This document shows, in pieces, positions 1,426 through 64,000 of a stretch of 64,000 nucleotides of DNA (position 1 is the stretch's first letter; every line of letters starts with the position of its first letter). The DNA is from an uncultured Chloroflexia bacterium. Lineage in GTDB: Bacteria; Chloroflexota; Limnocylindria; Limnocylindrales; CSP1-4. The translations under genes were made by a program, and so were the position numbers. Location: assembly GCA_963831745.1 (NCBI GenBank), contig CAWHRD010000005.1, forward strand, positions 20,341 through 84,340, given 5' to 3'. The notes below the pieces were generated by a model. The model was not told the origin of the DNA. It saw only the letters and a program-made list of their open reading frames with translations, and did not search any database.

Positions 1426-1429
<4 letters not shown>
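584..1429 (+). CDS. uox: Urate oxidase (uricase)
   Basis: 281 aa. N-terminus [14 protein letters not shown] and [12 protein letters not shown] are classic uricase T-fold motifs. GTG start is preceded by GAGGAGG. The stop overlaps the next gene start (GTGA at 1426-1429). Confidence 0.9.
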
Positions 1430-39401: not shown

Positions 39402-39761
39402 CCGTCGAGTATGGCGCGCCGCCCGGGCACTCGAAGCACCCTCGCCGGTCGCTTCGCCCTGCGTCGGATGGCCGGCGGAGGACGTTCCAGCCCAGCCTGA
39501 CGCACAGGTCGGCGCGCGGCGATCCGTCGTGCGATCGCCCTGGCGACAGCCGCGCACGGTCAGGGCCCCACCGAGCGGGCATCCGCTGCCGTCCATGCTC
39601 CGCTGTCGCCAAACCGATCGCGGGGCCGATCCGGGTGGCGGCCGGACGGGGCACCCGGAGACGGGGCCCGGCGGGCACCCAAGCAGCTCCCACTCGACGG
39701 GCGCCCGCGGTGTTGGCGCCGGGCGGTTGACATGCCGGGCGGGATGCGCGACAAACGCCGC

Positions 39762-47682: not shown

Positions 47683-49083
47683 ATGGACCGCTACGCCGAC
47701 GTCTCGTACTGGCTGGAGACCGCCGGCGACCTGGCGCCCCGGCCGCCGCTCGACGGGACCACCGACTGCGACGTCGCCGTCCTTGGCGCAGGCTATACGG
47801 GGCTCTGGACCGCCTACTACCTGCTGAAGCGCCGGCCCGGCCTGCGGGTCGTCGTCGCGGAGGGCGAGATCGCCGGGTTCGGCGCCTCGGGACGCAACGG
47901 CGCCTGGTGCGCCCCGGACCTCAACATCTCGATGGAGCGCCTTGCACGGCTGCACGGCGAGGACGCGGCGCGGCGAATCCAGCAGGCGACGTACGACGCG
48001 GTCGACGAGATCGGCCGCGTCACCGAGGCCGAGGGCCTCGACGCCGGCTTCCACAAGGGCGGCGAGCTGCTCGTCGCGCGCGGCCCGCACCACGTCCCGG
48101 CGATCGAGGCGAGCCTCCGCGAGTACGAGCGGTTCGGCTTCGGCGAGCATTACCGGCTCCTCGACGCGGCAGGAGTGGCCGAGAAGGTCCGGATCGCCGG
48201 CGCGGTCGCCGGCCTCTGGACCGGCACGGCGGCGGTCGTCCACCCCGGGCGCCTCGTCCGCGGCCTCGCCGCGCTCGTGGAGCGGCTGGGCGCCCGGATC
48301 GTCGAGCGCACGCCCGTCTCCGACGTCCGGGCGGCCGTGAGCGGTCCGGCCGGTGGGGCGCCCGCGGCGCTGATCACGCCGCGGGGCGAGATCCGGGCGC
48401 CCGTCGTCGTCCTCGCCGGGGAGGCCTACCTCGTGCGCCTCGCGAAGCTCCACCGGCAGCTCGTCCCGATGTACTCGCTGATCGTGCTGACGGAGCCCGT
48501 CGACGACGCCCGCTGGGCCGAGATCGGCTGGGCCGGCCGCGAGGTGGTGGCCTCCGCCCGCCTCTCGATCGACTACTTGTCGCGGACGGAGGACGGCCGG
48601 ATCCTGTTCGGCGGCCGCGGCGCCCCGTACCGCCTGGGCTCGCCGATCAAGGACGCCTATGACCGCCATGACCCGACCCACGAGATGCTCCGCGGCTTCG
48701 TGCGGACATGGTTCCCGATGCTCCGCGACGTCCGCTTCACGCACGCCTGGGGCGGCCCCCTGGGCATGCCGCGCGACTGGCACCCCTCGTTCGCCTTCGA
48801 CCCGCGCAGCGGCATCGCGAGCGCCCGCGGCTATGTCGGCCACGGAGTCTCGACGGCGAACCTGGCCGGTCGCACGCTCGCCGACCTCATCGGCGGGGAG
48901 CGGACGCCGCTGACGGAGCTGCCCCTGGCGAACCACCGCAGCCCGGACTGGGAGGTCGAGCCGCTCCGCTGGCTGGGCATCCGGTACACGCAGGGCGCGA
49001 TCGCGCGCCTCGACCGGCGGTCCGAGGCGACCGGGACGCCGCCGACCGGTCGCTCGCTCGCCGAGCGGATCGCGAGCCACTGA
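47683..49083 (+). CDS. FAD-dependent oxidoreductase (DAO family, PuuB-like)
   Basis: Trimmed to the ATG at 47683. FAD motif DVAVLGAGYTGL. GASGRNGAW. Confidence 0.75.
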   Translation: MDRYADVSYWLETAGDLAPRPPLDGTTDCDVAVLGAGYTGLWTAYYLLKRRPGLRVVVAEGEIAGFGASGRNGAWCAPDLNISMERLARLHGEDAARRIQQATYDAVDEIGRVTEAEGLDAGFHKGGELLVARGPHHVPAIEASLREYERFGFGEHYRLLDAAGVAEKVRIAGAVAGLWTGTAAVVHPGRLVRGLAALVERLGARIVERTPVSDVRAAVSGPAGGAPAALITPRGEIRAPVVVLAGEAYLVRLAKLHRQLVPMYSLIVLTEPVDDARWAEIGWAGREVVASARLSIDYLSRTEDGRILFGGRGAPYRLGSPIKDAYDRHDPTHEMLRGFVRTWFPMLRDVRFTHAWGGPLGMPRDWHPSFAFDPRSGIASARGYVGHGVSTANLAGRTLADLIGGERTPLTELPLANHRSPDWEVEPLRWLGIRYTQGAIARLDRRSEATGTPPTGRSLAERIASH

Positions 49084-49180: not shown

Positions 49181-50389
49181 GTGGATCCATCGGGCCTCAT
49201 CGCCGCCGAGTGGCTCTTCGTCGGCCTGCTCGCCGTCGCGTCGGTGGTCGCGCTCCTGACGCGACGGACGAACCTCCCGTACTCGGTGGCGCTCGTCCTG
49301 GCGGGTCTCGCGCTGACGGCCGTCCTGCCGGCCGCCGACGTCGAGGTCTCGCCGGACGTCCTCCTGGCGATCCTCCTCCCGGGCCTCGTCTTCGAGGCAG
49401 CCCTGAAGACCGACCTGGGGCAGCTGAAGCCGGCCGCCGGGGCGGTGACGCTGCTCGCGGCGCCGGGGGTGCTCATCACGGCGGCCGTCGTGACGCTGAT
49501 CCTGCACGTGGCGACGGGACTCGACCTGGGCCTGGCGCTCGTCGTCGGCGCGATCGTGTCGGCGACGGATCCCGTCGCGGTCATCGCCATCTTCCGCCGG
49601 GTGGGAGCTCCCCCGCGTCTCGCCACGACGGTGGAAGCCGAGAGCCTCTTCAACGACGGCACGGGGATCGTCCTCTTCGCCATCGCCGTGGAGGCGGTCG
49701 GGACCCCGCTCGACCCCGGCGCCGGGGCGATTGCCTTCGTGACCACGGTCGCCTTCAGCGGGCTGATCGGAGGTCTCGCCGGCTTCCTGGCGTCGCGGGT
49801 GATCGCGACGGTGGACGATCACCTCGTCGAGCTCACGATCTCCGTCCTGGTCGCGTACGGGACCTACCTCCTCGCCGGGTACCTCCACGAGTCGGGCGTC
49901 ATCGCGACCGTCGTCGCCGGGATCGTCATCGGGAGCTACGGCCGGCGGATCGGGATGAGCGCCCGGACGGCCGAGGCGCTCGACACGGTCTGGGAGTTCC
50001 TGGCCTTCCTCCTGACGGCACTCACGTTCCTCCTGGTCGGGCTCGCGATCAGCCTCGACCAGCTCGCCGGGGCGGCCGTCTCCATCGCCTGGGCCTTCGT
50101 GGCGGTCACCATCGGCCGCGCAATCGTCGTCTACGGCCTCCTCGGCGGGGCAAGCCGGCTGATCCGGCGGGGCGACCGGATCCCGGGCGCCTGGCTCCAC
50201 GTCCTGTTCTGGGCCGGGCTCCGCGGGGCCGTCGCAACGGCCCTCGCGCTGTCGCTGCCGCTCGACCTGCCGCAGCGCGAGCTCATCGCGGGCACCGCCT
50301 TCGGGGTCGTGGTCCTGACCCTCGTGATCCAGGGGACGACGGCCGGGGCGGTGATCCGGCGGGCCGGCCTCGCGCGGCCCACGCCGTAG
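49181..50389 (+). CDS. Na+/H+ (cation/proton) antiporter, CPA1/NhaP-type
   Basis: 402 aa, polytopic. SATDPVAV and ESLFNDGTGIVLF are conserved CPA1 motifs. Confidence 0.85.
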   Translation: MDPSGLIAAEWLFVGLLAVASVVALLTRRTNLPYSVALVLAGLALTAVLPAADVEVSPDVLLAILLPGLVFEAALKTDLGQLKPAAGAVTLLAAPGVLITAAVVTLILHVATGLDLGLALVVGAIVSATDPVAVIAIFRRVGAPPRLATTVEAESLFNDGTGIVLFAIAVEAVGTPLDPGAGAIAFVTTVAFSGLIGGLAGFLASRVIATVDDHLVELTISVLVAYGTYLLAGYLHESGVIATVVAGIVIGSYGRRIGMSARTAEALDTVWEFLAFLLTALTFLLVGLAISLDQLAGAAVSIAWAFVAVTIGRAIVVYGLLGGASRLIRRGDRIPGAWLHVLFWAGLRGAVATALALSLPLDLPQRELIAGTAFGVVVLTLVIQGTTAGAVIRRAGLARPTP

Positions 50390-50533
50390 CGGCACCGGGG
50401 ATGCCCGGCACGCGCCGGTGGACGGGGCACGACGCGGCAGTGCCGGGGCACGCTGCGGCGGGGGTGCCGGCGCACGACGTGGCGGACGACGGCCGCCCAT
50501 ACTGGAGCGGTCGCCCACCGATGGAGGACCCAC

Positions 50534-51403
50534 GTGGACACGATCCGGGAGATCCTGGCGGCGCACGAGTCGGGCATCTCACGCGACGGCCTTCTCGCCT
50601 GGGCGCGCCTCCGGGCCGACCCGACCATGACGGACGCACAGCTGGAGGCCGCGCTCGTGGCGCTGGGCGACGAGGTCGTCGACGTGCAGGGCTTCCTCTA
50701 CCTGCGCCGGCATGCGCCGGCCTCCGCCTTGGGCGACGCCGGCGCATTCGCCACGCCCCCGCCGCCGCCCGTCGAGGGCCAGGCATGGGGCGCGCCGCCG
50801 CCGCCCGTCGAGGGCCAGGCATGGGGCGCGCCCGACGGATCGCTTTCGCCGCCCTCGTCCCCGGGTGGCCGCCGCACGATGGTCCTCGCGACCGTCGGCG
50901 TCCTCGGGTTCGTCGTCGCCGCCGGCATCGGCGCCTTCATCCTCCGCGCCGGCGACCGCGGCGCGGCGCTCGAGAGCCCGCCGGTCGACGCAACGCCGGC
51001 CGAGGAGACGCCCGCCGTGCCGACGCCCACCTCCGGCTCGGTCGTGGATGCGTTCACCATCGAGCTGGGCGACTGCCTGATCGTCCCGTCGGAGGACCAG
51101 TTCGAGGAGATTCGTCGCCTCGCCTGCACCGAGCCGCACGACGGCGAGGTCTTCTTCGTCGCCGACTACCCCGGCTCCGACCTGCCGTCGGACGACGACT
51201 TCAGCACCTTCGTCGAGGAGCAGTGTCTCCCGGCCTTCGCCGAGTTCACCGGCAGCCCCTACGAGGACCAGGACGTCCTCGACGTCGGCTGGTTCACGCC
51301 GACCGAGGGCTCGTGGGGCAACGGGGACCGCGAGGTCGTCTGCTACCTCACGCCGGTGGACGGCAGCCAGACGAGCCAGTCGTACCACGACGCGAAGCCC
51401 TGA
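50534..51403 (+). CDS. Bitopic protein: conserved ~60-aa cytoplasmic N-domain, TM segment, extracytoplasmic Cys-rich Septum_form-like domain (paralogue A)
   Basis: GTG start (MDTIREILAAH...). TM segment MVLATVGVLGFVVAAGIGAFIL. The C-domain GDCL...CTEPHDGEVF...C...W...GDREVVCYL resembles Pfam Septum_form. Confidence 0.65.
   Translation: MDTIREILAAHESGISRDGLLAWARLRADPTMTDAQLEAALVALGDEVVDVQGFLYLRRHAPASALGDAGAFATPPPPPVEGQAWGAPPPPVEGQAWGAPDGSLSPPSSPGGRRTMVLATVGVLGFVVAAGIGAFILRAGDRGAALESPPVDATPAEETPAVPTPTSGSVVDAFTIELGDCLIVPSEDQFEEIRRLACTEPHDGEVFFVADYPGSDLPSDDDFSTFVEEQCLPAFAEFTGSPYEDQDVLDVGWFTPTEGSWGNGDREVVCYLTPVDGSQTSQSYHDAKP
50759..50830 (+). repeat. Perfect 36-nt tandem duplication inside a CDS
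   Basis: CCGCCGCCGCCCGTCGAGGGCCAGGCATGGGGCGCG occurs twice, encoding PPPPVEGQAWGA twice. Confidence 0.9.
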
Positions 51404-51568
51404 TCCCGGGGGCGCGAGCGCAACCCTGGTCCGGACCGGAGCGGCCGCGGACGCGCCCACCGGCGACCGATGAGCGCCGCGCCGTGGGCCCGATCGGGCC
51501 GAACGTCCCTCGACCGGACGTCCCGACGGCGGAATACTCGGGACGTCCCGACCCGCACGGGGTTCGTC

Positions 51569-52447
51569 ATGGAGACCGTCCGCGGCATCCTCGCAGCCCA
51601 CCGCCTGGGCATCTCGAGGCCCGGCCTCCTGGCGTGGGCGCGCCTCCGGATCGACACCGCGATGACCGAGGCACAGCTCGAGGAGGAGCTCGCCCGCCTC
51701 GGCGACGAGGTCGTCGACGTCGACGGCTTCCTCTACCTGCGCGAGTACGTGACCTCGTCACGCCAGCCGGCCCGGACCGCCGCTCCCGCCCGCTCGGCGT
51801 CGCCGGCACCGCCGCCGACGAACAGCGGGGTCACCCTGCCGTCGGACACGTGGACCTGGCTGCGGGACGCCCCGGCCAACGCCGGCGCGCCGCGCCCGAT
51901 CGGACGCGGCGGCATCGGCAAGGCGATCGGGGTCGGCGTCTTCCTGTGGTGGCTCGTTTCGTTCGTCGGCGGGTTCGTCCAGGGCGGCGCAGAGACGCCG
52001 CCGGAGCTCGCGGCATCGACCACGCCCGGCGCACCGGCCACCGCCACGCCGCTGCGCATGCCGACGCCCTCCATCGGCGACGTCGTCCCGTGGCGGGCCG
52101 TCGGCGTCGGGGACTGCATCGTCGTCCCCGAGGAGGCGACGGTCGGAGAGCTGCGCCGGGTGCCCTGCGACACGCGGCACGGCGGCGAGGTCTTCGCCTT
52201 GGTCGATCACCCTGGTCCGCTGGCGGCGTTCCCCGACGACGGCTTCGCCGCGTTCGTCGCGGCGCGCTGTGGGCCCGCATTCGAGGCGTGGACCGGGACC
52301 GGGATCGCCGACCAGGACGTTCTCAACATGGCGTGGTTCTCCCCGACCTGGGACGGCTGGGTTGAAGGCGACCGGCAGGTCACCTGCTACCTGGTCCAGG
52401 TCGACGGGACCAACATGTACTCGTCCTACCGGGCCGCCGGCTCCTGA
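51569..52447 (+). CDS. Bitopic Septum_form-like protein (paralogue B)
   Basis: Trimmed to the ATG at 51569 (METVRGILAAH...). Same architecture and the same conserved blocks as paralogue A. Confidence 0.65.
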   Translation: METVRGILAAHRLGISRPGLLAWARLRIDTAMTEAQLEEELARLGDEVVDVDGFLYLREYVTSSRQPARTAAPARSASPAPPPTNSGVTLPSDTWTWLRDAPANAGAPRPIGRGGIGKAIGVGVFLWWLVSFVGGFVQGGAETPPELAASTTPGAPATATPLRMPTPSIGDVVPWRAVGVGDCIVVPEEATVGELRRVPCDTRHGGEVFALVDHPGPLAAFPDDGFAAFVAARCGPAFEAWTGTGIADQDVLNMAWFSPTWDGWVEGDRQVTCYLVQVDGTNMYSSYRAAGS

Positions 52448-52467
52448 TCCGAGCCGCCCGCGCCTGA

Positions 52468-53961
52468 TCAGGCCAAGGCGGCCGCCACCCCCGGGAGCTC
52501 CTCGGCCAGGCCGAACGGCGCGCCGGCCGCCCGCACGAGCTCGACCATCGCCGCCTCCACGGACGCGTCGAGCGCCGGCCGGACGTACGCCGCCAGCAGC
52601 TGCTCCACCCGGTCGTGCGCCCGGGAGGCAGCATCCGGCCGTCCCGCGTCCTCCCAGGCCCGCAGGGAGGCCCGGTCGATGACCGCCGACGGCAGCGCCT
52701 GCTCCGAGCGGAACAGCCGTCGCGTCTCGGGCAGCTCGAGGAAGCGGGCCTCCGGGCCGGCCGACCGGATCATCGCCGTGGCCAGCGTCTCGGTCGGCGT
52801 GGCGATGCCCCGCAGGAGGCGCTGGGCCATGGCGATCCCCTCGGCGTCGAGGACGAGCTTCTCGGCGCTCTGGCAGCGCAGCGAGTCGAGCATCCCCGCG
52901 CCCGAGATCATGTCGATCCCGGCGAGGGCCCCGGCGAGGGCGGACATCCCGCTCTCGAGGCCGGCCTGGTAGTCGACCACCTTGCCGTCGGTCGCGGAGA
53001 GGTAGCCGTGCGTCGGCAGGTTGAGGTCCTTGCCGACCTGGGCGTACGCCGCGTCGAGCATCGCCGTCTCGATCGCCCCCATGGGCGTGACGCCGGTCCG
53101 CATGTCGACGATCGCCGGGGCGCCGCCCCACACGATCGGCGCGCCGGGGCGGGCGAGCTGGTGGATGGCGATGCCGGACAGGCACTCCGCCGCGTGCTGC
53201 ACGACCGACCCGACGAGCGTGACGGGCGCGGCCCCGCCCGCGAGCGGCATCGAGACCATCTCGGCCGGGACGCGGGCCCGGGCAAGGTCGACGAGGTTCC
53301 GGGCGCCGAACGCCGTCCAGGTGAGCGGCGGCGAGGGGCAGACGTCGAAGACCGCGCGCGGCCGGTCCGCCAGCGCCTCGCGGCCACCGGCGTCGAGGGC
53401 CAGGAGGTCGATCATCGCCGCCGACCCCAGCGGGCTGAAGGCGCCGGTCACGATCGGCTTCGCCGACCCGAGGAGGACCAGGAACAAGCGGTACAGGTCG
53501 CCGATCTCGGCCGGGACGTCTCCGCACACGATCGCCGTCGACTGGGCGGCGTAGGCCGGGAGCATCTCGGCGACGCGCACGAGGCGGACCAGGTCGCCGG
53601 CGGTGGACGGGCGATGGTCGCCCGTGACCGGGTCGAGCATGTTCACGCCCGACGAACCGGGGTCGAACTGGACGATCCCGGCCCCGTAGCGGACGGCCGG
53701 CGCGCCGGACCGGTCGAACAGGTCGAACGACGCGGGCACCGTCGCGAGCGCGCCCTCGACGAGGGCCGTCGGGATGCGGACGACCTCGCCCTCGACCTCG
53801 GCGCCGGCGTCGCGGAGCAGCGCCACGGCCTCGGCGTCCTGGACCCGGACGCCGGGGTCGCGCAGCAGCTCGAAGGCCTCCTCGAGGATCCGGCCCACGA
53901 GGTCCGGCCCGAGGAGGCGGAGGACGGGGCGCAGGGCCTCCTCGCCGGCGGGCCGGCTCAT
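52468..53961 (-). CDS. MttB-superfamily (trimethylamine methyltransferase-like) methyltransferase, non-Pyl, copy 1
   Basis: 497 aa, an uninterrupted ORF. MttB-like TIM-barrel blocks. The start overlaps the upstream stop (ATGA at 53958-53961). Confidence 0.75.
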   Translation of the reverse strand: MSRPAGEEALRPVLRLLGPDLVGRILEEAFELLRDPGVRVQDAEAVALLRDAGAEVEGEVVRIPTALVEGALATVPASFDLFDRSGAPAVRYGAGIVQFDPGSSGVNMLDPVTGDHRPSTAGDLVRLVRVAEMLPAYAAQSTAIVCGDVPAEIGDLYRLFLVLLGSAKPIVTGAFSPLGSAAMIDLLALDAGGREALADRPRAVFDVCPSPPLTWTAFGARNLVDLARARVPAEMVSMPLAGGAAPVTLVGSVVQHAAECLSGIAIHQLARPGAPIVWGGAPAIVDMRTGVTPMGAIETAMLDAAYAQVGKDLNLPTHGYLSATDGKVVDYQAGLESGMSALAGALAGIDMISGAGMLDSLRCQSAEKLVLDAEGIAMAQRLLRGIATPTETLATAMIRSAGPEARFLELPETRRLFRSEQALPSAVIDRASLRAWEDAGRPDAASRAHDRVEQLLAAYVRPALDASVEAAMVELVRAAGAPFGLAEELPGVAAALA

Positions 53962-55469
53962 CGGGCGGGCCCCGCGGCCACCAGGGCGTCGACCGCCGTC
54001 GGTGCCGGCCCCTCGCCGGCCTCGCGCTCGACCGCGCCAACGACCCGGGCGAGCTCCGCCGCAAGGGCCGGCTCCAACGGCTCGGGGACATGCGTCGCCA
54101 GGAGCTCACGCGCCTTCGCGTTGGCCCACGCGCGCGGCCCGCCGCCCTCGGCCTCCACGACGCCCATGGGACGCCGGTCCATGAAGCGCGAGCGCCACAT
54201 CGAGCGCATGTGGCGCCGCGTGTGGGGCGCGGTCAGGTAATCACCGCCCGGTCCGACCTCGGCGATCGTGTCGAGCGCGAGCGACTCGTCGTCGACGGGG
54301 ATTCCCTTGAGGGTGGCGCGGACGACCGAGTAGATCTCGGCGTCGAGGAGGAGCTGCTCGTGGGACCAGATCCGGCTCCCGTTGAGGAGCCCAAGGCCCA
54401 GGAGCATGTCCGAGCCGGACGCCGAGGCGACGAACGACGAGAGGGCGTTCTCGACGCCGGCCTGCCAGTCGGGCGCCTTGGCGCCGGTGGCGAACGCGCC
54501 CATGGACAGCGGGACGCCGTAGAAGTCGGCCAGGGCGTTCGTCGCCGCGCCGAACAGGAAGTCCTCGGGACCGCCGCCCGTGTAGGCGCCCGAGCGAAGG
54601 TCGATCGCCGTCTGGGCCGCCGCGTAGTAGACGGGACAGCCGGGGTACGTGACCTGCATCAGCGCGAGGGCGGCGACGACCTCGGCGTTGCCGACGACCA
54701 GCGAGCCGGCCACCGTGGCCGGGCCGGTGAAGGCTGCCGACGCCATCGTCATGTAGCCGACCGGGATCCCGGCCTCGGCGGCGACGAGACCGGCGTCGAT
54801 GCTGCCGCCGTCGTGGCCCAGCGGGCTCGTGGTGCACTGCATCATCGAGAGGACCGGGCGGACCCGGAGGGCGTCCCGGCCTCCGGCGATCGCGGCGGCC
54901 ATCTCGACCGCGGCGCGCGCCTCGCGCTCGGTGACGATCGACTCGGTCTGGACGTGCTTGGTGCTGTTGGCCCAGCAGGCCAGCAGCTCGTGGAGCGAAC
55001 GCGAGGCGGCCGGGCGGTCCTGCGCGGAGACGGGGATCCAGTGGAAGGCGACCTCGTCGAGGGCGTCCGCGAGGCGGGCGATCTCGGCGACGTCGGCCAG
55101 GCGCGACGGGCGCCGCTCGCCGGTCTCGAGGTCGGCGACCTCGATCCCGCAGCCGTCGGTCGCGGCATAGACGTGCTCGCCGTCGAGCGACAGGTCGAGG
55201 GCCGGGTCGCGCGCGGCCAGCGGGTAGACCGGCGGGGCGGTCGCGAGGGCGGCCTCGATCGTCGCCCGCGGGACCTTGACGATGCTGGTGGCGCGGTCGA
55301 CGTCCGCGCCGGCCGCGGCCCAGATGTCGAGGGCGCGCTCGGACGGGAAGCGGACGCCGACGTGCTCGATCACGTGGAGCGTCGCCTCGTGGATCCGGGC
55401 GATCGCCTCGGCGTCGAGCACCTCGAGGCGCAGGCCGCGCGTGGCGATCGGGTCGAGGGGGGCGCTCAC
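53958..55469 (-). CDS. MttB-superfamily methyltransferase, non-Pyl, copy 2
   Basis: Trimmed to the GTG at 55469, which overlaps the corrinoid-protein stop (GTGA). 503 aa. IHEATLHVIEHVGV..., MMQCTTSPLGHD, DYLTAPHTRRHMR. Confidence 0.75.
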   Translation of the reverse strand: MSAPLDPIATRGLRLEVLDAEAIARIHEATLHVIEHVGVRFPSERALDIWAAAGADVDRATSIVKVPRATIEAALATAPPVYPLAARDPALDLSLDGEHVYAATDGCGIEVADLETGERRPSRLADVAEIARLADALDEVAFHWIPVSAQDRPAASRSLHELLACWANSTKHVQTESIVTEREARAAVEMAAAIAGGRDALRVRPVLSMMQCTTSPLGHDGGSIDAGLVAAEAGIPVGYMTMASAAFTGPATVAGSLVVGNAEVVAALALMQVTYPGCPVYYAAAQTAIDLRSGAYTGGGPEDFLFGAATNALADFYGVPLSMGAFATGAKAPDWQAGVENALSSFVASASGSDMLLGLGLLNGSRIWSHEQLLLDAEIYSVVRATLKGIPVDDESLALDTIAEVGPGGDYLTAPHTRRHMRSMWRSRFMDRRPMGVVEAEGGGPRAWANAKARELLATHVPEPLEPALAAELARVVGAVEREAGEGPAPTAVDALVAAGPAR

Positions 55470-56143
55470 CGGGCCGCTCCTTCCGGCGCCGCGTCGGCCG
55501 CGCCGACCAGCTGCTTGGCGAGCTCCACGGCGCCCATGGCGTCTTCCGAGTAGCCGTCGGCGCCGATCTCGGCGGCCCACTGGCCGGTCACCGGCGCGCC
55601 GCCGACCATCACCTTGACGGGCGGCCGGAGACCGGCCTCCGTCAGGGCCGCGATGACGGCCCGCTGGCCGGTCATCGTCGTGGTCAGGAGCGCCGAGAGG
55701 CCGACGATGTCGGCGCGATGCTCGCGGGCCGCCTCGACGAAGCGCTCCGGCGCCACGTTGACGCCGAGGTCGTGGACCTCGAAGCCGGAGGTCGAGAGGA
55801 GCATCCCGACCAGGTTCTTCCCGATCTCGTGGATGTCGCCGGCGACCGTGCCGATGACAACCCGGCCGGCCACCGTCCGCTCGACGGCGGCGGCCTTCAG
55901 CTCGGGCTCCAGCACGCTCAGGGCGCGCTGCATGGCGCGGGCCGCCAGCATCATGTCGGGGAGGAACAGGTCGCCCGCGGCGAACCCCGCCCCGACCTCC
56001 TTCATGCCGGGCATGAAGCCCTCGTCGATCGCGACGAGGGGCGGGATCCCGGCCGCGACGGCGGCCTTCGCGGCGGCCTCGGCGGCATCGGCGTCGCCGT
56101 CGACGACGGCCTGGCGCATCGCCTGGAACTCGGTGTCGCTCAT
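55466..56143 (-). CDS. Cobalamin-binding corrinoid protein (B12-binding_2 plus B12-binding domains)
   Basis: The 1072-aa track ORF was trimmed to the ATG at 56143, with GAGGAG upstream. DxHxxG motif GDIHEIGKN. SALLTTT. VMVGGAP. Confidence 0.85.
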   Translation of the reverse strand: MSDTEFQAMRQAVVDGDADAAEAAAKAAVAAGIPPLVAIDEGFMPGMKEVGAGFAAGDLFLPDMMLAARAMQRALSVLEPELKAAAVERTVAGRVVIGTVAGDIHEIGKNLVGMLLSTSGFEVHDLGVNVAPERFVEAAREHRADIVGLSALLTTTMTGQRAVIAALTEAGLRPPVKVMVGGAPVTGQWAAEIGADGYSEDAMGAVELAKQLVGAADAAPEGAAR

Positions 56144-56256
56144 CGGGGCCGCTCCTCGGTGCGTTGGTGCTGACGGTAGGTGGAAGGTGACGGTGGTGGG
56201 AAGGGGCCGTTGGCGCTCGGCGGGTGGTGCCGCCGGCCGGGCGTCGGGACCGGACG

Positions 56257-57690
56257 TCAGAGGCCGGCTGTGGCCTCGGCGCGCTCGACCACCGCCCGCA
56301 CGGCCTTCTCGACGTCGGGGTCGAGCGGCGTGGGGAGGTGGCTGCCGAGCAGTTCGTCCACGCGGACCGCGGCCCGCTGGGCAAGGGTGGTCGCGCCGGC
56401 CGAGCGCCACGGCTCGTACCCCCGGCGGTCGAACAGCGTCGGGTACCACCGGTCGCGGTAGTGCGCGAACGTGTGGTCGAGCTCGAGGTACGACCCGTCG
56501 ACGCCGTGAGCCTCCACGAGGTCCAGGGCCAGCGCCTCGTCGGAGACGTCGACGGGGCGGACCAGGGCGTTGATCCAGCCGGCCAGCTCGTCGCAGATCA
56601 CGAGCTGCACGAGCGAGCCCGTGAGGCCGGACTCCAGGTAGCCGCAGTCGTGGATGAGGTGGCCGCCGGCCAGGGCGTCGGCGAGCATCGTCATGCCCGC
56701 CTCGGCCGCGGCCTGCTCGTCGACGACCTTCGAGTCGCTGCCGGCGCCGAGGCTGAACATGGGCAGGCCCCAGCGGTGGGCCAGGGATGCGGCGACTCCC
56801 TTGGGCTCGGGGCCGGCGTACGGGTCGACCATCGTCCGCAGGTCGAGCGAGTCGCCGCCGAAACCCGGGACCACGACGGGCGTGCCCTCGCGCGCGAGCT
56901 GTGCCAGGACGACGCCCGCGAGGACGCCGGCCGTGTTGATGGCCATCGTCCCGGCGAGGGTGACCGGGCCGGTCGTGCCGCCGGACGTGACCGGGATCCA
57001 GAGGGCCGGCACACCGCGCTCGGCGCAGGCGAGGAGCTTGCGGACGGAGTCCTCGTTGAAGAGGAGGCCGCGCGTGACGTTGATGTAGACCGCCACCCGG
57101 GGACGGTCGGCGTGCTCCCGGCGGCCGCCGGCCACCGCCTCGGCCATCTCCAGGCCGTCGAGCATGCCCGCGAGGTCGTAGGTGACGAGGACGATCGGCT
57201 TGCGGGTCAGCTCGAGCATCGCCGCGGCCTGGTGGCGGTCGGCGAGGGCCTGGTCGACGTCCTCGGGCAGGAACATCGACATCACGAAGTCGATGTCGGG
57301 GAGGGCGTCGGCGAGCGTGAGGCCCTCCGCGAGGTCGCTGGAGGTGGCGCGGCGTCGCTCGCCGGTCCGGTGGTCGAGGACGTTGAGGCAGTCCGAGCCG
57401 GTCCCGAAGTAGTGGCGCCGTCCCGCCAGGCGGATCGCCGGCGCCCCCGCGCGATCGTGGAGCGTGACCTCCTTCGGCGCCTGCTCGATCGCCCAGGTGA
57501 CGAGCCGCTCCGGGATGCGAACCCGCGACCCGTCGACGAGGGCACCGGAGTCGCGCAGCAGGTCGAGCGCCTCCGGGACCGGGATCTCGACGCCTGTCCG
57601 CTCGAGGATCTCGAGGGCGGCCGACTCGAGGCGAGCGGCCGTCGCCGGCGCCAGCCGGTCCCAGCGCGGCGTCTCGCGCGCGTCCGTCAT
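56257..57690 (-). CDS. MttB-superfamily methyltransferase, non-Pyl, copy 3
   Basis: Trimmed to the ATG at 57690, with GGAGGAGG upstream. 477 aa. LEILERTGVEI..., TSGGTTGPVTLAG, DHTFAHYRDRWYP. Confidence 0.75.
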   Translation of the reverse strand: MTDARETPRWDRLAPATAARLESAALEILERTGVEIPVPEALDLLRDSGALVDGSRVRIPERLVTWAIEQAPKEVTLHDRAGAPAIRLAGRRHYFGTGSDCLNVLDHRTGERRRATSSDLAEGLTLADALPDIDFVMSMFLPEDVDQALADRHQAAAMLELTRKPIVLVTYDLAGMLDGLEMAEAVAGGRREHADRPRVAVYINVTRGLLFNEDSVRKLLACAERGVPALWIPVTSGGTTGPVTLAGTMAINTAGVLAGVVLAQLAREGTPVVVPGFGGDSLDLRTMVDPYAGPEPKGVAASLAHRWGLPMFSLGAGSDSKVVDEQAAAEAGMTMLADALAGGHLIHDCGYLESGLTGSLVQLVICDELAGWINALVRPVDVSDEALALDLVEAHGVDGSYLELDHTFAHYRDRWYPTLFDRRGYEPWRSAGATTLAQRAAVRVDELLGSHLPTPLDPDVEKAVRAVVERAEATAGL

Positions 57691-57921
57691 CGAGCCTCCT
57701 CCACGCCGCCCGTGCGCCGGGCACGCCGCCCCACCCTGCGAGGGTGGACGGCGCGACCCGTCCCGCGACAGGGACCTTCGGCCCGAATCCGGCACGGTTC
57801 GGGCGGTGCTCGGCCTCCGCGCCCGGGCTCCGCGCGTGGGGCGGCGGGCGGGCCCGGGTTGCGCGCGTGGGGCGGGCCCGGGCCCGGCGCGGCCGGGCGG
57901 GGGAGGCGCGGTCGGCCGCCG

Positions 57922-59040
57922 TCAGGAGGCCGCCGTGAGAGCGCCCAGCGTCGAGTCCTCGCCGGCGACCGTCGGCAGGTCGCCCCGGGGATTGGCACAG
58001 CACCCGGCGGCGCACACGGCCGGCCACGGCCCCAGCGGGCTGAGCGCCGTCGGAGCGCCGCCGGAGATGCGCTCGAGCACGAGGTCGACGATCCCGGACA
58101 CGAACGCCGTGGCCGTGCCCGGCGTCGCCACCCGGAGCATGCGGACCCCGAGCTCGTCGCAGGTCTCCCGGGCCTCGTGATCGAGGTCCCAGGCAACCTC
58201 CACGTGATCGCTGACGAAGCCGATCGGCACGACCACGGCGGCCCGCATCCCGTCGGCGTGGGCCTCGCGGAGCGCGTCGTTCACGTCGGGCTCGAGCCAC
58301 GGCACGTGCGGCGAGCCGCTCCGGGACTGGTAGACCAGCGAGGACGCCGGCACGTCCACGCCGCGCGCCCGGACCCCCGCAACGACGAGGTCGATCGCCG
58401 CCAGGTGCTGGGCCACGTAGGCCCCGCCGGCGTCGAAGCGTCCCGGGGGGCCGGACGCGGACGCCATCGACACTGGGATCGAGTGGGTCGTGAACAGCAC
58501 CCTGACGTCCGCCGGGAGGTAGCCCACGCCGGCCAGGATCCCGAGCGCCTCGGCGAGCCCGTCGGCAAAGGGGGTGACGAAGCCGGGATGGTCGAAGAAG
58601 TGGCGGACCTTGTCGATGGCGAGACGCCCGCCCAGGCCCGCCTCGTCCAGGCTCCGGGCAAGGTCCTCCCGGTACTGGCGACACCCGGAGTACGACGCGT
58701 AGGCGCTGGTGGCGAGGGCGAGGACGCGGCGGTGGCCGTCCGCGTGGATCCGGGCCAGCTCGGGAGCCAGGTACGGAGCCCAGTTGCGGTTGCCCCAGTA
58801 CACGGGGAGGTCGACGCCGCGCGCGGCCAGCTCGGTTCGGAGGGCGGCGAGCAGTGCCCGGTTCTGGTCGTTGATGGGGCTCACCCCGCCGAACGCGAGG
58901 TAGTGGTGCGCGACGTCCTCGAGCCGCTCCCGCGGGATGCCCCGGCCCCGAGTGACGTTCTCGAGGAAGGGCATCACGTCGGCCGGCCCCTCCGGGCCCC
59001 CGAAGGAGACGAGGAGGAAGGCGTCGTACGCCGTGCTCAT
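57922..59040 (-). CDS. cpfC: Coproporphyrin ferrochelatase, actinobacterial type with C-terminal Cys cluster
   Basis: Trimmed to the ATG at 59040, which overlaps the chdC stop (ATGA). FLLVSFGGPEG, THSIP and GFVSDHVEV motifs. C-terminal CAAGCC. Confidence 0.85.
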   Translation of the reverse strand: MSTAYDAFLLVSFGGPEGPADVMPFLENVTRGRGIPRERLEDVAHHYLAFGGVSPINDQNRALLAALRTELAARGVDLPVYWGNRNWAPYLAPELARIHADGHRRVLALATSAYASYSGCRQYREDLARSLDEAGLGGRLAIDKVRHFFDHPGFVTPFADGLAEALGILAGVGYLPADVRVLFTTHSIPVSMASASGPPGRFDAGGAYVAQHLAAIDLVVAGVRARGVDVPASSLVYQSRSGSPHVPWLEPDVNDALREAHADGMRAAVVVPIGFVSDHVEVAWDLDHEARETCDELGVRMLRVATPGTATAFVSGIVDLVLERISGGAPTALSPLGPWPAVCAAGCCANPRGDLPTVAGEDSTLGALTAAS

Positions 59041-59732
59041 CGGAGCACCTCGACCGCCTCGGCGAGGCCGATCCGTCGCCCGGTATGGAACGGCACTTCC
59101 TCGCGCACGTGGCGCCGGGCCTGGGTCGCCCGCAGGTCGCGCATGAGGTCGACCAGGTCGTGGAGGTCGTCCGACTCCAGGGCGAGGATCCACTCCCAGT
59201 CGTTGAGGGCGAACGACGCCACGGTGTTCGCCTGGACGCCGGTGAAAGCCCGCCCTGCCAGCCCGTGCTCGTGAAGCATGGCGCCCCGCTCGGCCTCCGG
59301 GAGCAGGTACCACTCGTAGGACCGCACGAACGGGTAGACGCAGAGCCAGCTGCGGGGCTCGGAGCCCAGCATGAACGACGGCACGTGGTCGCGGCTGAAC
59401 TCGGCCGGACGGTGCGTCCCCATGGCCGACCAGGCGAACGACGTCCGGCTGCCGGCCTCGGTGCGCCGGAACCCGCGGAGCGCAGCCTGGAGCGACTCGG
59501 CGCTCGGGCCGTGGAGCCAGAGCATGAGGTCGGTCCCGGCGCGGAAGCCCGACACGTCGTAGCAGCCGCGCAGGACGACGTCCTCGCCGGCGAGGGCGGC
59601 AGCCCATGCCTCGAGGCCGGCTGCCGCGCCCTCGTCGATCGTCGCGCCGGTCCGCCCGAACACCGACCAGAGGGCGTACCGGACGGTGCGGTTCGGGTCG
59701 AGCTGCTTCGCCGGGTCGACCAGGTCGGTCAT
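59037..59732 (-). CDS. chdC: Coproheme decarboxylase (HemQ, chlorite-dismutase family)
   Basis: Trimmed to the ATG at 59732, with GAGGAG upstream. 231 aa. YPFVRSYEWYLL and WEWILALESDD blocks are typical of HemQ. Confidence 0.85.
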   Translation of the reverse strand: MTDLVDPAKQLDPNRTVRYALWSVFGRTGATIDEGAAAGLEAWAAALAGEDVVLRGCYDVSGFRAGTDLMLWLHGPSAESLQAALRGFRRTEAGSRTSFAWSAMGTHRPAEFSRDHVPSFMLGSEPRSWLCVYPFVRSYEWYLLPEAERGAMLHEHGLAGRAFTGVQANTVASFALNDWEWILALESDDLHDLVDLMRDLRATQARRHVREEVPFHTGRRIGLAEAVEVLR

Positions 59733-59875
59733 CGGTTCTCCTCGAATGTGCCGGTCCGACCGCTGCGAACCCGGCTGTCGTGCCTCGACCGGGCGCGGTC
59801 CGGGCGTGCTCACGCCGTCGCCCCATACGATACCGGCGACCCGCTCCCGGCGGGTCCGCCGCCGTCGGCGGCATC

Positions 59876-59887
59876 TATCGTTCGATA
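59876..59887. promoter_or_regulatory. AT-rich inverted repeat TATCG-TT-CGATA in the divergent chdC / regulator-hemA spacer (candidate operator)
   Basis: Arms are 5+5 bp, extendable to a 14/18 palindrome (ATCTATCGTTCGATACAT). It stands out in otherwise GC-rich DNA. Confidence 0.25.
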
Positions 59888-60109
59888 CATCCTCGCGCCG
59901 GAGACCGGACCGATGCGCACGGTCGAGGGCTCGGTTATTGTGCCCGGGGGCGGATGGGGCCGCTGGGGGCTCACGGGCAGAATCCCGTTCAGGTGTCAGG
60001 CTGCGGGGCTCGCCCGCGGCAACGAGGGCCGGTCGAGGCGAACCGGAAGGCCGCGTCGAAGTGCGACCTCGAGGCTGGGAGATATGAGCGAATTGACAAG
60101 GTTCGAGCG

Positions 60110-60904
60110 ATGGGGCTCGCAGGGGCCGGCAGCGTGACGCCCGCCGCCCCGCCGGCCGGCGCCGCCGACTGGATCTCGATCCGGGAGGCCAGCGCCATGC
60201 TCGGCGTCTCGCCTGCCACGCTCCGCCGATGGGCCGAGGCCGGCGTCGTCCCGGCGTTCACCACCCCCGGCGGCCATCGCCGCTTCAGCCGGTCCGCGAT
60301 CTCGGCACGCCTGCCGGGCGCACGGGCCTCGCGGCGCAACCTGGCCGGCCTCGGCACGACCACCGAGGGGATGGCCGAGCGCTATCGGCGCCAGGCCCAC
60401 GGCGCAGCCGCGGCCGCCCCGTGGCTCGCGGCGGTCCCGGAGTCGTCGCGCGAGCTCCTGCGGGAGCACGGTCGGGCGATCGCCGCCGCGCTCATCGGGA
60501 CGGTGGAGGCGACGAGCGAGCGAGAGCGCGCCGCGACCCTCGCCGGCGCGATGGCGGCTGCCGCCGACTATGGCCGGCTCGCGGCGATGCTCGGGGCGAG
60601 CATGCGCCAGACCGTGGCCACGTTCCTCCAGTTCCGGCGGCCCTTCGTCGAGGAGATGGCCGCCGTCGCCCGGCGCGGCGAGCTCGACGGCGCCGAGACG
60701 GCCGCCCTGCTGGCGGTGGCGGGCGAGGCGATCGACCGCCTGCTCGACGCCACGCTCGAGGCGCACGAGGCCGCCTCCGCCGAAGCCGCGGCCGCCGCCT
60801 TCGCCGGAGAGTCCGCAGCTCCCGCCGAAGCCGCGGCTCCCGCCGAGGAGTCCGCAGCTCCCGCCGACGCCGCGGCCGACGCCCTTGCGGGAGCCCGCCG
60901 ATGA
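60110..60904 (+). CDS. Excisionase/MerR-like HTH (HTH_17-type) regulator with an all-helical C-terminal domain
   Basis: ISIREASAMLGVSPATLRRWAEAGVVPAFTTPGGHRRF is an HTH_17-like motif. Start is the ATG at 60110 or the GTG at 60134. The stop overlaps the hemA start (ATGA). Confidence 0.65.
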   Translation: MGLAGAGSVTPAAPPAGAADWISIREASAMLGVSPATLRRWAEAGVVPAFTTPGGHRRFSRSAISARLPGARASRRNLAGLGTTTEGMAERYRRQAHGAAAAAPWLAAVPESSRELLREHGRAIAAALIGTVEATSERERAATLAGAMAAAADYGRLAAMLGASMRQTVATFLQFRRPFVEEMAAVARRGELDGAETAALLAVAGEAIDRLLDATLEAHEAASAEAAAAAFAGESAAPAEAAAPAEESAAPADAAADALAGARR

Positions 60905-62124
60905 GCCTCGACCTCGCCGCGCGACGCGACGCGACGCCCGGGCTGGATCGACAGGCCGGTGACGGTGCCGGCCCGGGCGTGCCCGTCGTGGAGGCACTCC
61001 TCCTCCACGCGCGCCGGGTGCCTAGCCTCGAGCGCGAGGCATTCGTCGCGCGGCTGGCCGGCCTGCCCGTCGACGAGCGCTGGGTCCTCCTTCACACCTG
61101 CCACCGGGTGGAGCTGTATGTCGCACCGGGCGCCCGCGGCCTGCCCGAGCTCCCGGAGCTCCCCGACGGCACGCAGCGGCTTGCCGACGTCGAGGCGGTG
61201 CGGCACCTGATCACCGTCGCGTGCGGCCTCGACAGCGCCGTCCTCGGCGAGGACCAGATCCTGCACCAGGTGCGAACCTGCCTCGCCGAGCGCCACGTCG
61301 CGGGACCGCTCGACCCCGTCCTCGACCGGCTCTTCCACGCCGCCCTGCGCGCCGGTCGCAAGGCCCACGCGTGGTTCGACGGGCCGCCCCGCTCGCTGGC
61401 TGACGTCGCCCTGGACCGGGTCGCGCGGACCGGCGGGACGCTCGACGACCGCGCGATCCTCGTCGTGGGCGCCGGCCGGATGGGCCGGCTCGCGGCGCTG
61501 GCGGCCCATCGTCGCGGCGCGCGGGTGGTCGTCGTCAACCGGACCGACGAGCGGGCGGCAGCTCTCGCGACCGAGCTCGGAGGCATCGCCGTCCCCTACG
61601 CGAGCGACGGTCTCCTGCCACCCGTCGCCGGCGCCATCGTCGCCCTCGGCGGCCCATGGGAGCCCGGTCCGCTCGATGCGACGGCCCTGGTCGAGGCCGG
61701 GATCGAGGTGGTGGACCTCTCCTCGCCAACCTCGGTGGAGGCCGGTCTGCGGGGGCGGCTCGGGGCGCGCTTCACCTCCGTCGACGACCTGGTCGTTGGG
61801 CCGGAGTTCGAGCCGCACGATCGCCTCCGGCGGCGCCTAGAGTCCCTGGTCGCCGAGGCCGGCCGCGACTACTGCGCCTGGCTCCGCGGCCGCGACGCCG
61901 TGCCGGTCGTCCAGGCCCTCACGGCCGGCGCCGAGAGCCTTCGGCAGGTCGAGATGGAGTGGCTCCTGCGCCGCCTGCCCGATCTCACGGAGGAGGAGCG
62001 CGCGCGCGTGGAGCAGATGAGCCACCGCCTCGTCGCGGCGCTCCTCCACGCGCCGCTGGCGGCGCTGCACCAGGACGATACCGGGACTCTGGAGCGACCG
62101 GCCCGCGACCTCTTCGGGGTCTGA
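60901..62124 (+). CDS. hemA: Glutamyl-tRNA reductase
   Basis: Trimmed to the ATG at 60901. Active-site context LLHTCHRVELY. GLDSAVLGEDQILHQV. NADPH site VVGAGRMG. Confidence 0.85.
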   Translation: MSLDLAARRDATPGLDRQAGDGAGPGVPVVEALLLHARRVPSLEREAFVARLAGLPVDERWVLLHTCHRVELYVAPGARGLPELPELPDGTQRLADVEAVRHLITVACGLDSAVLGEDQILHQVRTCLAERHVAGPLDPVLDRLFHAALRAGRKAHAWFDGPPRSLADVALDRVARTGGTLDDRAILVVGAGRMGRLAALAAHRRGARVVVVNRTDERAAALATELGGIAVPYASDGLLPPVAGAIVALGGPWEPGPLDATALVEAGIEVVDLSSPTSVEAGLRGRLGARFTSVDDLVVGPEFEPHDRLRRRLESLVAEAGRDYCAWLRGRDAVPVVQALTAGAESLRQVEMEWLLRRLPDLTEEERARVEQMSHRLVAALLHAPLAALHQDDTGTLERPARDLFGV

Positions 62125-62127
62125 CCG

Positions 62128-63939: not shown

Positions 63940-64000
63940 GCGCCGTCACGGACGCCCGGCACGTCCCGCCCCCGGCCGTCGATCCCGAGGCCGTCCCGGC
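63936..64000 (+). CDS. 5' end of an unidentified CDS (by synteny possibly porphobilinogen synthase), truncated by the window edge
   Basis: ATG at 63936 overlaps the hemC-hemD stop (ATGA). Only 21 codons are visible. Confidence 0.3.
   Translation, partial: MSAVTDARHVPPPAVDPEAVP

Follow-up and report, generated by a model that had tools for sequence, protein, structure and literature searches.

The window analysed here is a 64 kb stretch of DNA from a high-GC Chloroflexota (Limnocylindria-type) soil bacterium whose genome also encodes a haem-copper oxidase. An actinobacterial origin, at first assumed from the GC content, was dropped, as the relatives are Chloroflexota/Limnocylindrales MAGs. 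The minus strand of the window carries an operon of four genes encoding three methyltransferases of the MttB superfamily and one corrinoid protein (Table 1). A first-pass annotation had placed these genes in the order MttB-3, corrinoid protein, MttB-2 and MttB-1, and both the order and the coordinates were reproduced. The GTGA and ATGA overlaps that it reported for the last three genes are also present: MttB-2 starts on the stop codon of the corrinoid gene and MttB-1 on that of MttB-2, so that both are translationally coupled to the preceding gene. As it further stated, the MttB frames are uninterrupted (none of the three contains a stop codon). The ATG start of MttB-3 is preceded by GGAGGAGG, and the DxHxxG motif of the corrinoid protein reads D-I-H-E-I-G. 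Since the whole genome contains only four MTTB genes, and at least ~25 other genomes show this gene order too, the clustering of the MttB genes goes beyond chance.

Table 1. Features of the operon, other genes in the window and the distal partner locus
Feature	Position	Strand	Description
Conserved non-coding element	57731..57795	-	Operon head; invariant blocks in 17 loci
MttB-3	56257..57690	-	477 aa, ATG start, operon gene 1; non-Pyl MttB-superfamily methyltransferase
C-rich spacer	56144..56256	-	MttB-3 to corrinoid gene; 113 nt, sequence variable
Corrinoid (cobalamin-binding) carrier protein (CoP1)	55466..56143	-	225 aa, MtgC/MttC type
MttB-2	53958..55469	-	503 aa, GTG start; non-Pyl MttB-superfamily methyltransferase
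MttB-1	52468..53961	-	497 aa; non-Pyl MttB-superfamily methyltransferase
HemQ/ChdC	59037-59732		In window
NDH-2-like gene	39732-41117		In window
Uricase	584-1429		In window
Partner locus	C6:1053384-1060711		~1 Mb into another contig; RACo/RamA activase, MTHFR fusion, pterin-binding methyltransferase, second corrinoid protein (CoP2)

All three MttB proteins matched PF06253 over the full length (288–305 bits against a Pfam gathering score of 25, with ~465 of the 500 profile positions covered by each), the E-values being 7e-91 for MttB-3, 3e-90 for MttB-2 and 1e-85 for MttB-1. Their scores against TIGR02369 (338, 431.5 and 342 bits for MttB-3, MttB-2 and MttB-1, respectively) all lie below the equivalog cut-off of 525, indicating that they are members of the MttB superfamily and not the true trimethylamine methyltransferase MttB. 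MttB-2 aligned end to end with solved members of the family (239 bits to PDB 7XCL, 233 bits to 2QNE/9YCE), MttB-1 and MttB-3 showed 28–31% identity to solved members, and the identity of the paralogues to MtgB was 28–34%. The corrinoid protein contains the domains PF02607 (B12-binding_2, 78 bits) and PF02310 (B12-binding, 106 bits) and passes the generic model TIGR02370 (218.7 bits, cut-off 215.3). The next-best NCBIfam models are of the MtgC type, and the MtgC-specific models fall short of their cut-offs (210 bits for a cut-off of 370, 204 bits for one of 310). Its gene lies inside the operon; in 36 of 43 loci it immediately precedes MttB-2. The family matches and the operon content thus uphold the earlier description of non-Pyl MttB enzymes with one common, dedicated corrinoid protein; the proteins do not cluster with non-methyltransferase members of the fold, and a cobalamin route and a partner methyltransferase are both encoded in the genome (see below).

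The mutual identity of the three paralogues is only 30–34%, and judged by their sequences they are ancient. In a tree whose references were three characterised or structurally solved members (MtcB, MtpB, MtyB and MthB being left out), the proteins formed four well-separated orthologue groups, MttB-4 and MttB-2 being sisters (99% support). Pocket residues were compared at the positions corresponding to Y97, R312, the pyrrolysine 334 equivalent, H348 and F356, and were found to be invariant within the groups but different between them. MttB-1 reads S/H/A/S/L, invariant in 42 orthologues except that the residue equivalent to pyrrolysine varies (34 A, 7 G, 1 T). MttB-2 reads G(C)/S/L/S at Y97/R312/H348/F356, with Ala at the pyrrolysine position, and both this Ala and the Ser replacing Arg312 are invariant, like the rest, in 46 orthologues; MttB-3 reads S(D)/F/G/H/G, without variation among 28 orthologues. 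In MtgB, Y97 and F356 provide cation-pi contacts while R312 and H348 bind the carboxylate; the enzyme is inactivated by the R312L substitution, and MtcB, MtpB, MthB and MtyB share R312 (PMC13080624). When aligned to MtgB, none of the three paralogues has kept Y97, R312 or F356, and H348 is found in MttB-3 only. No UAG is present at position 334, where Ala (MttB-1 and MttB-2) or Gly (MttB-3) is aligned, and the equivalent of Tyr364, which activates pyrrolysine in MttB (PMC9842639), is replaced by Ser, Leu or His in all three. Pyrrolysine was also considered for the relatives and rejected, since what few in-frame stops occur mark the C-terminal end or stem from assembly errors, and the pyrrolysine position is free of them.

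Because Arg312 is missing from all three paralogues, glycine betaine and similar quaternary amines appear unlikely as substrates, and the pockets also speak against phosphocholine and against trimethylamine chemistry of the pyrrolysine-dependent kind. They argue instead for three different, uncharacterised specificities. The betaine-type substrates listed initially (glycine betaine, proline betaine, carnitine and gamma-butyrobetaine) are thus unlikely, given the loss of Arg312 and of most other residues of the glycine-betaine site. The accompanying idea of a multi-substrate hub fits the deep divergence and the different, fixed pockets in so far as several specificities are meant. Since Arg312 is the residue shared by all characterised quaternary-amine members, even the demethylation chemistry may not be the known one.

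Comparison of related loci shows which parts of the operon are constant. Of 43 testable loci, 39 have MttB-1 directly after MttB-2, and one locus (L050) has MttB-2 without MttB-1. An upstream gene of the MttB3 type is present in 25 of 41 loci, so that MttB-3, found in ~60% of related loci, is accessory. In at least 11 relatives (~70% identity), a block of genes for DUF1638, Pterin_bind, MTHFR and RACo directly precedes MttB3-CoP-MttB2-MttB1 in divergent orientation, and this adjacency in the sister clade was confirmed by independent gene calls with precomputed Pfam assignments. Among 101 genomes sampled in the class, RACo was present in all 22 MTTB-positive genomes and in 2 of the 79 MTTB-negative ones. 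In seven close relatives the gene directly upstream of MttB-3 encodes a homocysteine S-methyltransferase, whose orthologue in the present genome lies ~14 kb upstream of the operon. A functional tie to the adjoining haem genes (cpfC, chdC, hemA and hemCD) was considered and rejected as synteny only, since their place is taken by the homocysteine methyltransferase in close relatives and by RACo in farther ones, and since CbiC and CobS are also missing. No substrate clue was obtained from nearby transporters, none being consistently linked across the loci, of which those of lower GC content were poorly parsed by the gene caller. MFS and Beta_elim_lyase genes recur 4–6 kb away in two loci only.

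The conserved non-coding element that heads the operon has the core GGGCCGGA(A/T)TCGGGCCRAAGGTCNCTGTC, followed by CCACCCTCGCA, and its blocks are invariant despite differing upstream genes. It occurs once in the genome, and all 14 testable metagenome matches lie ahead of a gene of the MttB3 type. The element has no Rfam match, and its reading as a structured RNA was abandoned, as RNAalifold gave just -8.9 kcal/mol with covariation nearly nil. We regard it as a candidate operon-specific promoter/operator or leader. Of the spacer that separates MttB-3 from the corrinoid gene, only the ribosome-binding region is conserved across 27 loci. A cobalamin riboswitch, for which a scan of this spacer and of positions 57691–57921 had been suggested, was not found in either (no Rfam match at E≤1). 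A scan for consensus promoters and terminators detected none and is uninformative at 74% GC.

Neither an activase nor a second methyltransferase was seen among the genes scanned from 42.9 kb to the window end at 64 kb (~6 kb past the cluster). The observation that these partners are missing thus holds for the neighbourhood but not for the genome: a genome-wide search recovered both a pterin-binding methyltransferase and a RamA-type activase on contig C6, and in relatives they adjoin the operon. The MTHFR at the C6 locus is fused to DUF5981, and DUF1638 is encoded nearby. CoP2 is 49% identical to CoP1, and since the C6 methyltransferase shares an operon with CoP2, its use of CoP1 is only assumed. 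With regard to cobalamin, the search revealed an uptake route, namely BtuF/FecCD/ABC genes preceded by a candidate AdoCbl riboswitch (47.8 bits, E 1e-6), indicating that the cofactor is probably imported via a BtuFCD-like transporter. CbiC and CobS were not found in the genome, but as this is 89% complete their absence is no proof of auxotrophy. The first-pass annotation had called the aerobic neighbourhood (uricase, HemQ, NDH-2) unusual. However, uricase is hardly a neighbour at a distance of 50 kb, and a matching component set has been shown in the aerobic Ruegeria pomeroyi (PMC12478193).

Taken together, we consider it likely that this four-gene operon provides the substrate-activating half of a three-component, cobalamin-dependent system for methyl transfer (demethylation), the other parts of which are encoded elsewhere in the genome. 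Each MttB would take its own methylated small molecule and pass one methyl group to the Co(I) of the common corrinoid protein. The pterin-binding methyltransferase from the other contig would transfer the methyl group to tetrahydrofolate (THF), and the adjoining MTHFR-DUF5981 fusion would convert methyl-THF to methylene-THF, to be oxidised or assimilated. Accidentally oxidised Co(II) would be re-reduced by the RACo/RamA-type activase, probably together with DUF1638, while cobalamin would be taken up rather than synthesised. The direction of methyl flow in this scheme is, like the acceptor and the distinctness of the substrates, what we infer from the gene content and the pockets. It is also conceivable, though tentative and on balance rather doubtful, that the paralogues represent three new MttB specificity classes (with non-acidic, S-methyl or unprecedented donors), that MttB-2 and MttB-1 function as a constant pair and that the operon is switched by a substrate-responsive upstream element.

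The tight coupling of the genes, the adjacency of MttB-2 and MttB-1 and the single carrier for three enzymes would also be expected if the paralogues demethylated a single polymethylated substrate step by step. Such sequential demethylation seems unlikely, as ~40% of the loci lack MttB-3 yet otherwise contain CoP-MttB2-MttB1, the family offers no precedent for demethylation of tertiary or secondary amines without pyrrolysine, and neither dimethylglycine nor sarcosine is a substrate of MtgB (PMC13080624). The near-universal adjacency and ATGA coupling of MttB-2 and MttB-1 could likewise reflect an obligate heteromer, for instance of a catalytic and a structural or regulatory subunit, the more so as known members are dimeric with the C-terminus of one subunit lining the active site of its partner (PMC13080624, PMC9842639). 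This arrangement we hold to be very unlikely: both proteins retain invariant pocket residues, the locus L050 has MttB-2 alone, and MttB-4 occurs without an MttB-1-type partner in this genome as well as in Actinomycetota and Acidobacteriota loci.

The fate and the source of the methyl groups could also differ from the scheme above. Their use for methionine synthesis, with homocysteine as the acceptor in place of THF-linked oxidation, would resemble the dual-use MtgBCDE system, in which MtgC and MtgD serve both functions in R. pomeroyi (PMC12478193), and the homocysteine S-methyltransferase gene next to MttB-3 in close relatives points in this direction. However, that neighbour looks like a stand-alone enzyme of the MmuM type, the adjacency is limited to one closely related clade (farther clades having RACo/MTHFR/Pterin_bind at this place) and the genome contains a classical MetH-like gene, so we regard the methionine route as improbable. 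Little probability is also given to the enzymes being ordinary methyltransferases for glycine betaine or other known quaternary amines that bind their substrate via different residues. Family precedent, the degree of identity to MtgB and the MtgC-type models ranking next for the corrinoid protein speak for it, but the substitutions at Y97, R312 and F356 in every paralogue, the effect of R312L together with the conservation of R312 in the other enzymes, and the wide margin by which the MtgC-specific models miss their cut-offs speak against it.

Genes of this type routinely carry the annotation 'trimethylamine--corrinoid protein Co-methyltransferase', and such annotations have been taken as evidence for methylotrophy on methylamines in metagenomes from soil and sediment (e.g. 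PMC11264602). Given that pyrrolysine and Arg312 are absent and that the known substrate-site residues are mostly lost, methylamine inferences from such annotations are unsafe. Members of the MttB-1 orthologue group are frequent in environmental sequence data (among the matches listed, 120 of 120 clusters were at least 66% identical to MttB-1), and the substrate of this group may therefore be an abundant methyl compound of soil. In aerobic Chloroflexota that are auxotrophic for B12, such a substrate may tie C1 flow to the supply of cobalamin. The substrate question is tractable, since a cultured relative, Levilinea saccharolytica KIBI-1, possesses the core CoP-MttB2-MttB1.

Among known systems, MttB/MttC of Methanosarcina barkeri (7XCL; PMC9842639) belongs to the same superfamily and likewise has the cognate corrinoid protein gene beside the enzyme gene. 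It differs in having pyrrolysine and Tyr364, and its methyl acceptor is coenzyme M, whereas here it is presumably THF. In Eubacterium limosum, the quaternary-amine enzymes MtpB, MtcB and MtyB with MtqC/MtqA/RamQ, as well as MthB/MthC/MthA, show how many MttB-superfamily specificities can feed common corrinoid, THF-methyltransferase and activase parts, as is proposed here (PMC8604678, PMC12155760). All these enzymes retain Arg312 and take substrates with an acidic group, in contrast to the His, Ser or Phe found here, and the host is an acetogen. The MtgB/MtgC/MtgA system of Desulfitobacterium hafniense for glycine betaine and THF (2QNE, 9YCE; PMC13080624) shares the fold family, the lack of pyrrolysine and the combination of a corrinoid carrier with a THF methyltransferase, but it serves a single substrate in an anaerobe, and its site residues are replaced here apart from H348 in MttB-3. 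By comparison, 4YYC, a solved Sinorhizobium-type homologue, retains Y97, R312 and H348 in the alignment.

The component list is identical to that of R. pomeroyi DSS-3 (MtgB-MtgC-MtgD with MetF2, RamA and DUF1638), for which the architecture, the aerobic setting and the use of one carrier by many MttBs were published in 2025 (PMC12478193). The genome studied here encodes every part of this list: a pfam06253 MT1, a corrinoid protein, a pterin-binding MT2, a RamA-type activase, DUF1638 and a further MTHFR. Since it also has a classical MetH-like gene, a second role of the system in methionine synthesis does not follow. The present system belongs to another phylum, its MTHFR is fused to DUF5981 and its paralogues lack the glycine-betaine-site residues. 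In both cases the host is an oxygen-respiring bacterium, the component genes are dispersed over the genome but lie together in relatives, and several pfam06253 paralogues are proposed to act on one corrinoid protein (MtgC in R. pomeroyi); systems of the R. pomeroyi type also occur in B12 auxotrophs with uptake systems (PMC12478193).

Genes in the window, whose GC content is 73-80%, were called by third-position GC and cross-checked against a six-frame ORF list. The stretch 52468-57690 is filled by four genes, all on the minus strand, encoding three MttB-superfamily proteins (MttB-1, MttB-2 and MttB-3) and one corrinoid protein (CoP1). In profile searches the three large proteins matched PF06253 over their whole length, with E values from 1e-86 to 1e-91. 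On the equivalog model for pyrrolysine-MttB, with a cut-off of 525, they reached 338, 431.5 and 342 bits. For CoP1, the score was just above the cut-off of the generic model 'methyltransferase cognate corrinoid protein' and below those of the MtgC-specific models. Gene calls and profiles thus confirm the gene order, overlaps and families as described in the first-pass annotation.

Features of the MttB operon and of other loci in the same genome (C6, a second contig)
Feature	Coordinates	Strand	Details
Non-coding element	window 57731-57795	minus	upstream of MttB-3, about 40-105 nt before the start codon
MttB-3	window 56257-57690	minus	PF06253 match
Spacer, 113 nt		minus	in the operon, between MttB-3 and corrinoid gene
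Corrinoid protein (CoP1)	window 55466-56143	minus	B12-binding cap and Rossmann domains, D-I-H-E-I-G
MttB-2	window 53958-55469	minus	GTG start; GTGA overlap with upstream stop
MttB-1	window 52468-53961	minus	ATGA overlap
MttB-4 (fourth MttB paralogue)	C6:558739-560208		adjoins class-II-aldolase-like gene; without corrinoid gene
MTHFR+DUF5981 fusion		plus	541 aa; after RACo, one C6 run
Pterin-binding methyltransferase		plus	342 aa; same C6 run; closest NCBIfam model methyl-THF:corrinoid methyltransferase, 181 bits
Second corrinoid protein (CoP2)		plus	same C6 run
DUF1638 gene			1.5 kb beyond C6 run

The operon is real, conserved and under selection. When the operon and partner proteins were mapped by tblastn onto 73 related loci, the order MttB3-CoP-MttB2-MttB1 was found in about 25 of them, at 60-94% identity. 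Relatives collected with MttB-2 are nearly all soil or sediment Chloroflexota MAGs ('uncultured Chloroflexia', Candidatus Limnocylindrales), the farther ones being Anaerolineae. MttB-1 directly follows MttB-2 in 39 of the 43 loci with enough sequence, the corrinoid gene directly precedes MttB-2 in 36 of 43, and MttB-3 occurs in 25 of 41; the conserved core is therefore CoP-MttB2-MttB1, to which MttB-3 has been added at the operon head. Levilinea saccharolytica KIBI-1, a cultured member of the Anaerolineae, also has this core (L048).

The three operon enzymes share 30-34% identity among themselves and 28-34% with both MtgB and MttB, and MttB-2 is 50% identical to MttB-4. A maximum-likelihood tree of 144 sequences separated four orthologue groups and placed MttB-2 as sister to MttB-4 (SH-aLRT 99%); the paralogues therefore go back to ancient duplications. 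For MtgB, mutagenesis and a structure with bound ligand have shown that the quaternary nitrogen is held by Y97 and F356 and the carboxylate by R312 and H348, that R312L abolishes activity, and that R312 is kept in MtcB, MtpB, MthB and MtyB (PMC13080624). At the positions Y97/R312/Pyl334(MttB)/H348/F356, aligned locally on the flanking conserved (L/V)P and GxG motifs, MttB-1 has S/H/A/S/L, MttB-2 G(C)/S/A/L/S and MttB-3 S(D)/F/G/H/G. Across the 42, 46 and 28 orthologues of the respective groups, four of these five sites never change. At the site equivalent to pyrrolysine, MttB-1 orthologues carry A (34), G (7) or T (1), and no relative has a TAG codon there. Pockets that are fixed within groups and different between them look as would be expected of distinct specificities under purifying selection. 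Taken together with the model scores, these proteins therefore belong to the superfamily but do not satisfy any of the defining features tested for true MttB, MtgB or the acidic quaternary-amine group, and the betaine-type substrates first proposed are probably wrong. Among the matches listed, MttB-1 orthologues (P0001-P0120) carry the public name 'trimethylamine--corrinoid protein Co-methyltransferase', yet lack pyrrolysine; this naming is likely a systematic over-annotation, which affects surveys of methylotrophy.

MttB-4 forms a pair with a class-II fructose-bisphosphate-aldolase-like protein of 477 aa (L015 4415-8208 = G000:C6:556414-560207), and seven Limnocylindria-type loci (L071-L075, L081, L086) repeat this pairing. 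Its orthologue in MAGs of Actinomycetota and Acidobacteriota instead comes first in MttB-CoP-Pterin_bind-RACo clusters.

Other roles for the paralogues were also weighed. Sequential removal of several methyl groups from one compound is unlikely, as MttB-3 is dispensable and the MttB family is not known to demethylate tertiary or secondary amines without pyrrolysine. That MttB-1 and MttB-2 form an obligate heteromer is very improbable, considering that MttB-4, of the sister group of MttB-2, does without an MttB-1-type neighbour. We also give little credence to the idea that known betaines are bound in a novel way. Delivery of the methyl groups to methionine synthesis could be suspected from a homocysteine S-methyltransferase gene that, in seven close relatives, is the immediate upstream neighbour of MttB-3, but this adjacency is limited to one shallow clade and the enzyme looks, by its sequence, like a stand-alone MmuM type, making such a role quite improbable. 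In these relatives (L017, L018, L023, L027, L030, L054 and L057, at about 6.6-7.6 kb) the MmuM-like gene is accompanied by a 156-aa ORF. In the present genome the orthologues lie outside the window (C5:91750-92769, minus), about 14 kb upstream and beyond a haem-biosynthesis block.

With regard to partner functions, the first-pass annotation was right that neither an activase nor a second methyltransferase lies within 5 kb; genome-wide, however, they are not missing, but encoded at C6:1053384-1060711. There the only RACo/RamA-type activase of the genome (524 aa, Fer2 + Raco_middle + RACo_C_ter) is followed by the plus-strand run. Linkage and co-occurrence in other genomes indicate that this locus and the operon are one system. 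In one clade of about 70% identity (L036-L044, L049, L065), DUF1638, Pterin_bind, the MTHFR fusion and RACo lie directly upstream of, and divergent from, the MttB operon, and the same eight-gene block occurs on two further contigs of complete-genome size, where the genes had been called independently and the Pfam hits precomputed. Among 101 sampled genomes of the class, 22 have MTTB and 24 have RACo, the latter being present in 22/22 MTTB-positive and 2/79 MTTB-negative genomes (Fisher's test 3e-20, ignoring kinship, with nearly all positives from one family). In a same-genus genome a single contig carries operon and partner locus, separated by about 0.5 Mb, and the split arrangement is therefore a genus trait. 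We infer that the distal pterin-binding methyltransferase, which has its own CoP2 beside it, also serves CoP1.

An XRE-type HTH-like ORF, read from translation, lies between the CoP2 gene and DUF1638 (L014 10844-11851, minus); these two genes are closer together in relatives. A URO-D/MtaA-CmuA-like methyltransferase gene adjoins the second corrinoid protein in relatives (L039 412-1575, L042 8-1147), and a paralogue of 41% identity lies about 26 kb past the window end (L091 1357-2493; C5:110357-111493). It may represent a further corrinoid methyltransferase module.

The source assembly (3.86 Mb, 10 contigs, 89% complete; the window is C5:20341-84340) encodes a haem-copper oxidase subunit I (550 bits), and the window encodes ChdC/HemQ, a coproporphyrin-type ferrochelatase, an NDH-2-like flavoprotein and uricase; these genes indicate a capability for aerobic respiration, bearing out the aerobic-type host proposed earlier. 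At three related loci a chdC-like gene sits just upstream of the MttB operon (L020 6941-7633, L024 6993-7664, L022 about 8295), 32-34% identical to that of the window though the MttB proteins share 85-92%, and cpfC is absent from this junction, where haem genes may have been replaced or rearranged. A DAO-family FAD oxidoreductase (window 47683-49083, +; best NCBIfam match 'putative aminophosphonate oxidoreductase', 239 bits, well under cut-off) is found downstream of the operon, at a distance of a few kb, in most of the close relatives, maybe through shared ancestry only.

Neither CbiC (corrin-ring enzyme) nor CobS (cobalamin synthase) was found in the 89% complete assembly. The cobalamin-riboswitch scan suggested for the operon spacers was negative over window 50000-64000, even at E<=1. 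A full-length AdoCbl riboswitch candidate (RF01482; C2:532625-532770, minus; L090 4625-4770; E 1e-6, 47.8 bits where the gathering score is 50) directly precedes a BtuF-like Peripla_BP_2/FecCD/ABC-ATPase operon, and the genome encodes a MetH-like frame with several domains as well as further B12-binding proteins. With the incompleteness of the assembly as a caveat, the simplest reading is a B12 auxotroph importing the cofactor. The combination named as telling against the original proposal, no cobalamin route together with no partner methyltransferase, was looked for and is not what this genome presents.

Upstream of MttB-3 lies a conserved element with the core GGGCCGGA(A/T)TCGGGCCRAAGGTCNCTGTC, then CCACCCTCGCA. 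It occurs once in this genome and is invariant in 17 loci despite differing upstream genes. An exact-match scan of metagenome contigs gave 17 hits; in all 14 testable ones an MttB3-type gene follows in matching orientation. The element also stands at the operon head in two loci without an intact MttB-3, and diverged versions occur in farther clades. Rfam holds nothing resembling it, and its consensus fold is weak. The core combines the imperfect palindrome GGCCgGAAtCgGGCC with a GGAAT-N16-GTC arrangement, which we take to recall ECF-sigma promoters; a promoter with operator is more likely than a riboswitch. One complete relative (L109 11490-13525) has an ECF-type sigma factor gene between two uncharacterised ORFs directly downstream of the operon, which is of interest because of the ECF-like look of the element.

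Most likely, each MttB enzyme would transfer a methyl group to Co(I) of the common carrier, the pterin-binding enzyme would pass it on to THF, the MTHFR fusion would convert methyl-THF to methylene-THF, and RACo with DUF1638 would repair oxidised cofactor. Genes annotated as mttB in Limnocylindria MAGs have been published previously (PMC11264602). Apart from its probably wrong substrates, the earlier interpretation as a multi-substrate hub was right in kind but is not new: up to seven pfam06253 paralogues per genome, presumably with one common MtgC, have been described, and B12-auxotrophic lineages carry an MtgBCD-type system plus transporter (PMC12478193). Nor is the aerobic setting unusual, as had been thought, since the aerobic Ruegeria pomeroyi, with MtgB, MtgC, MtgD, MetF2, RamA and DUF1638, provides a direct precedent for every part of the scheme (PMC12478193).
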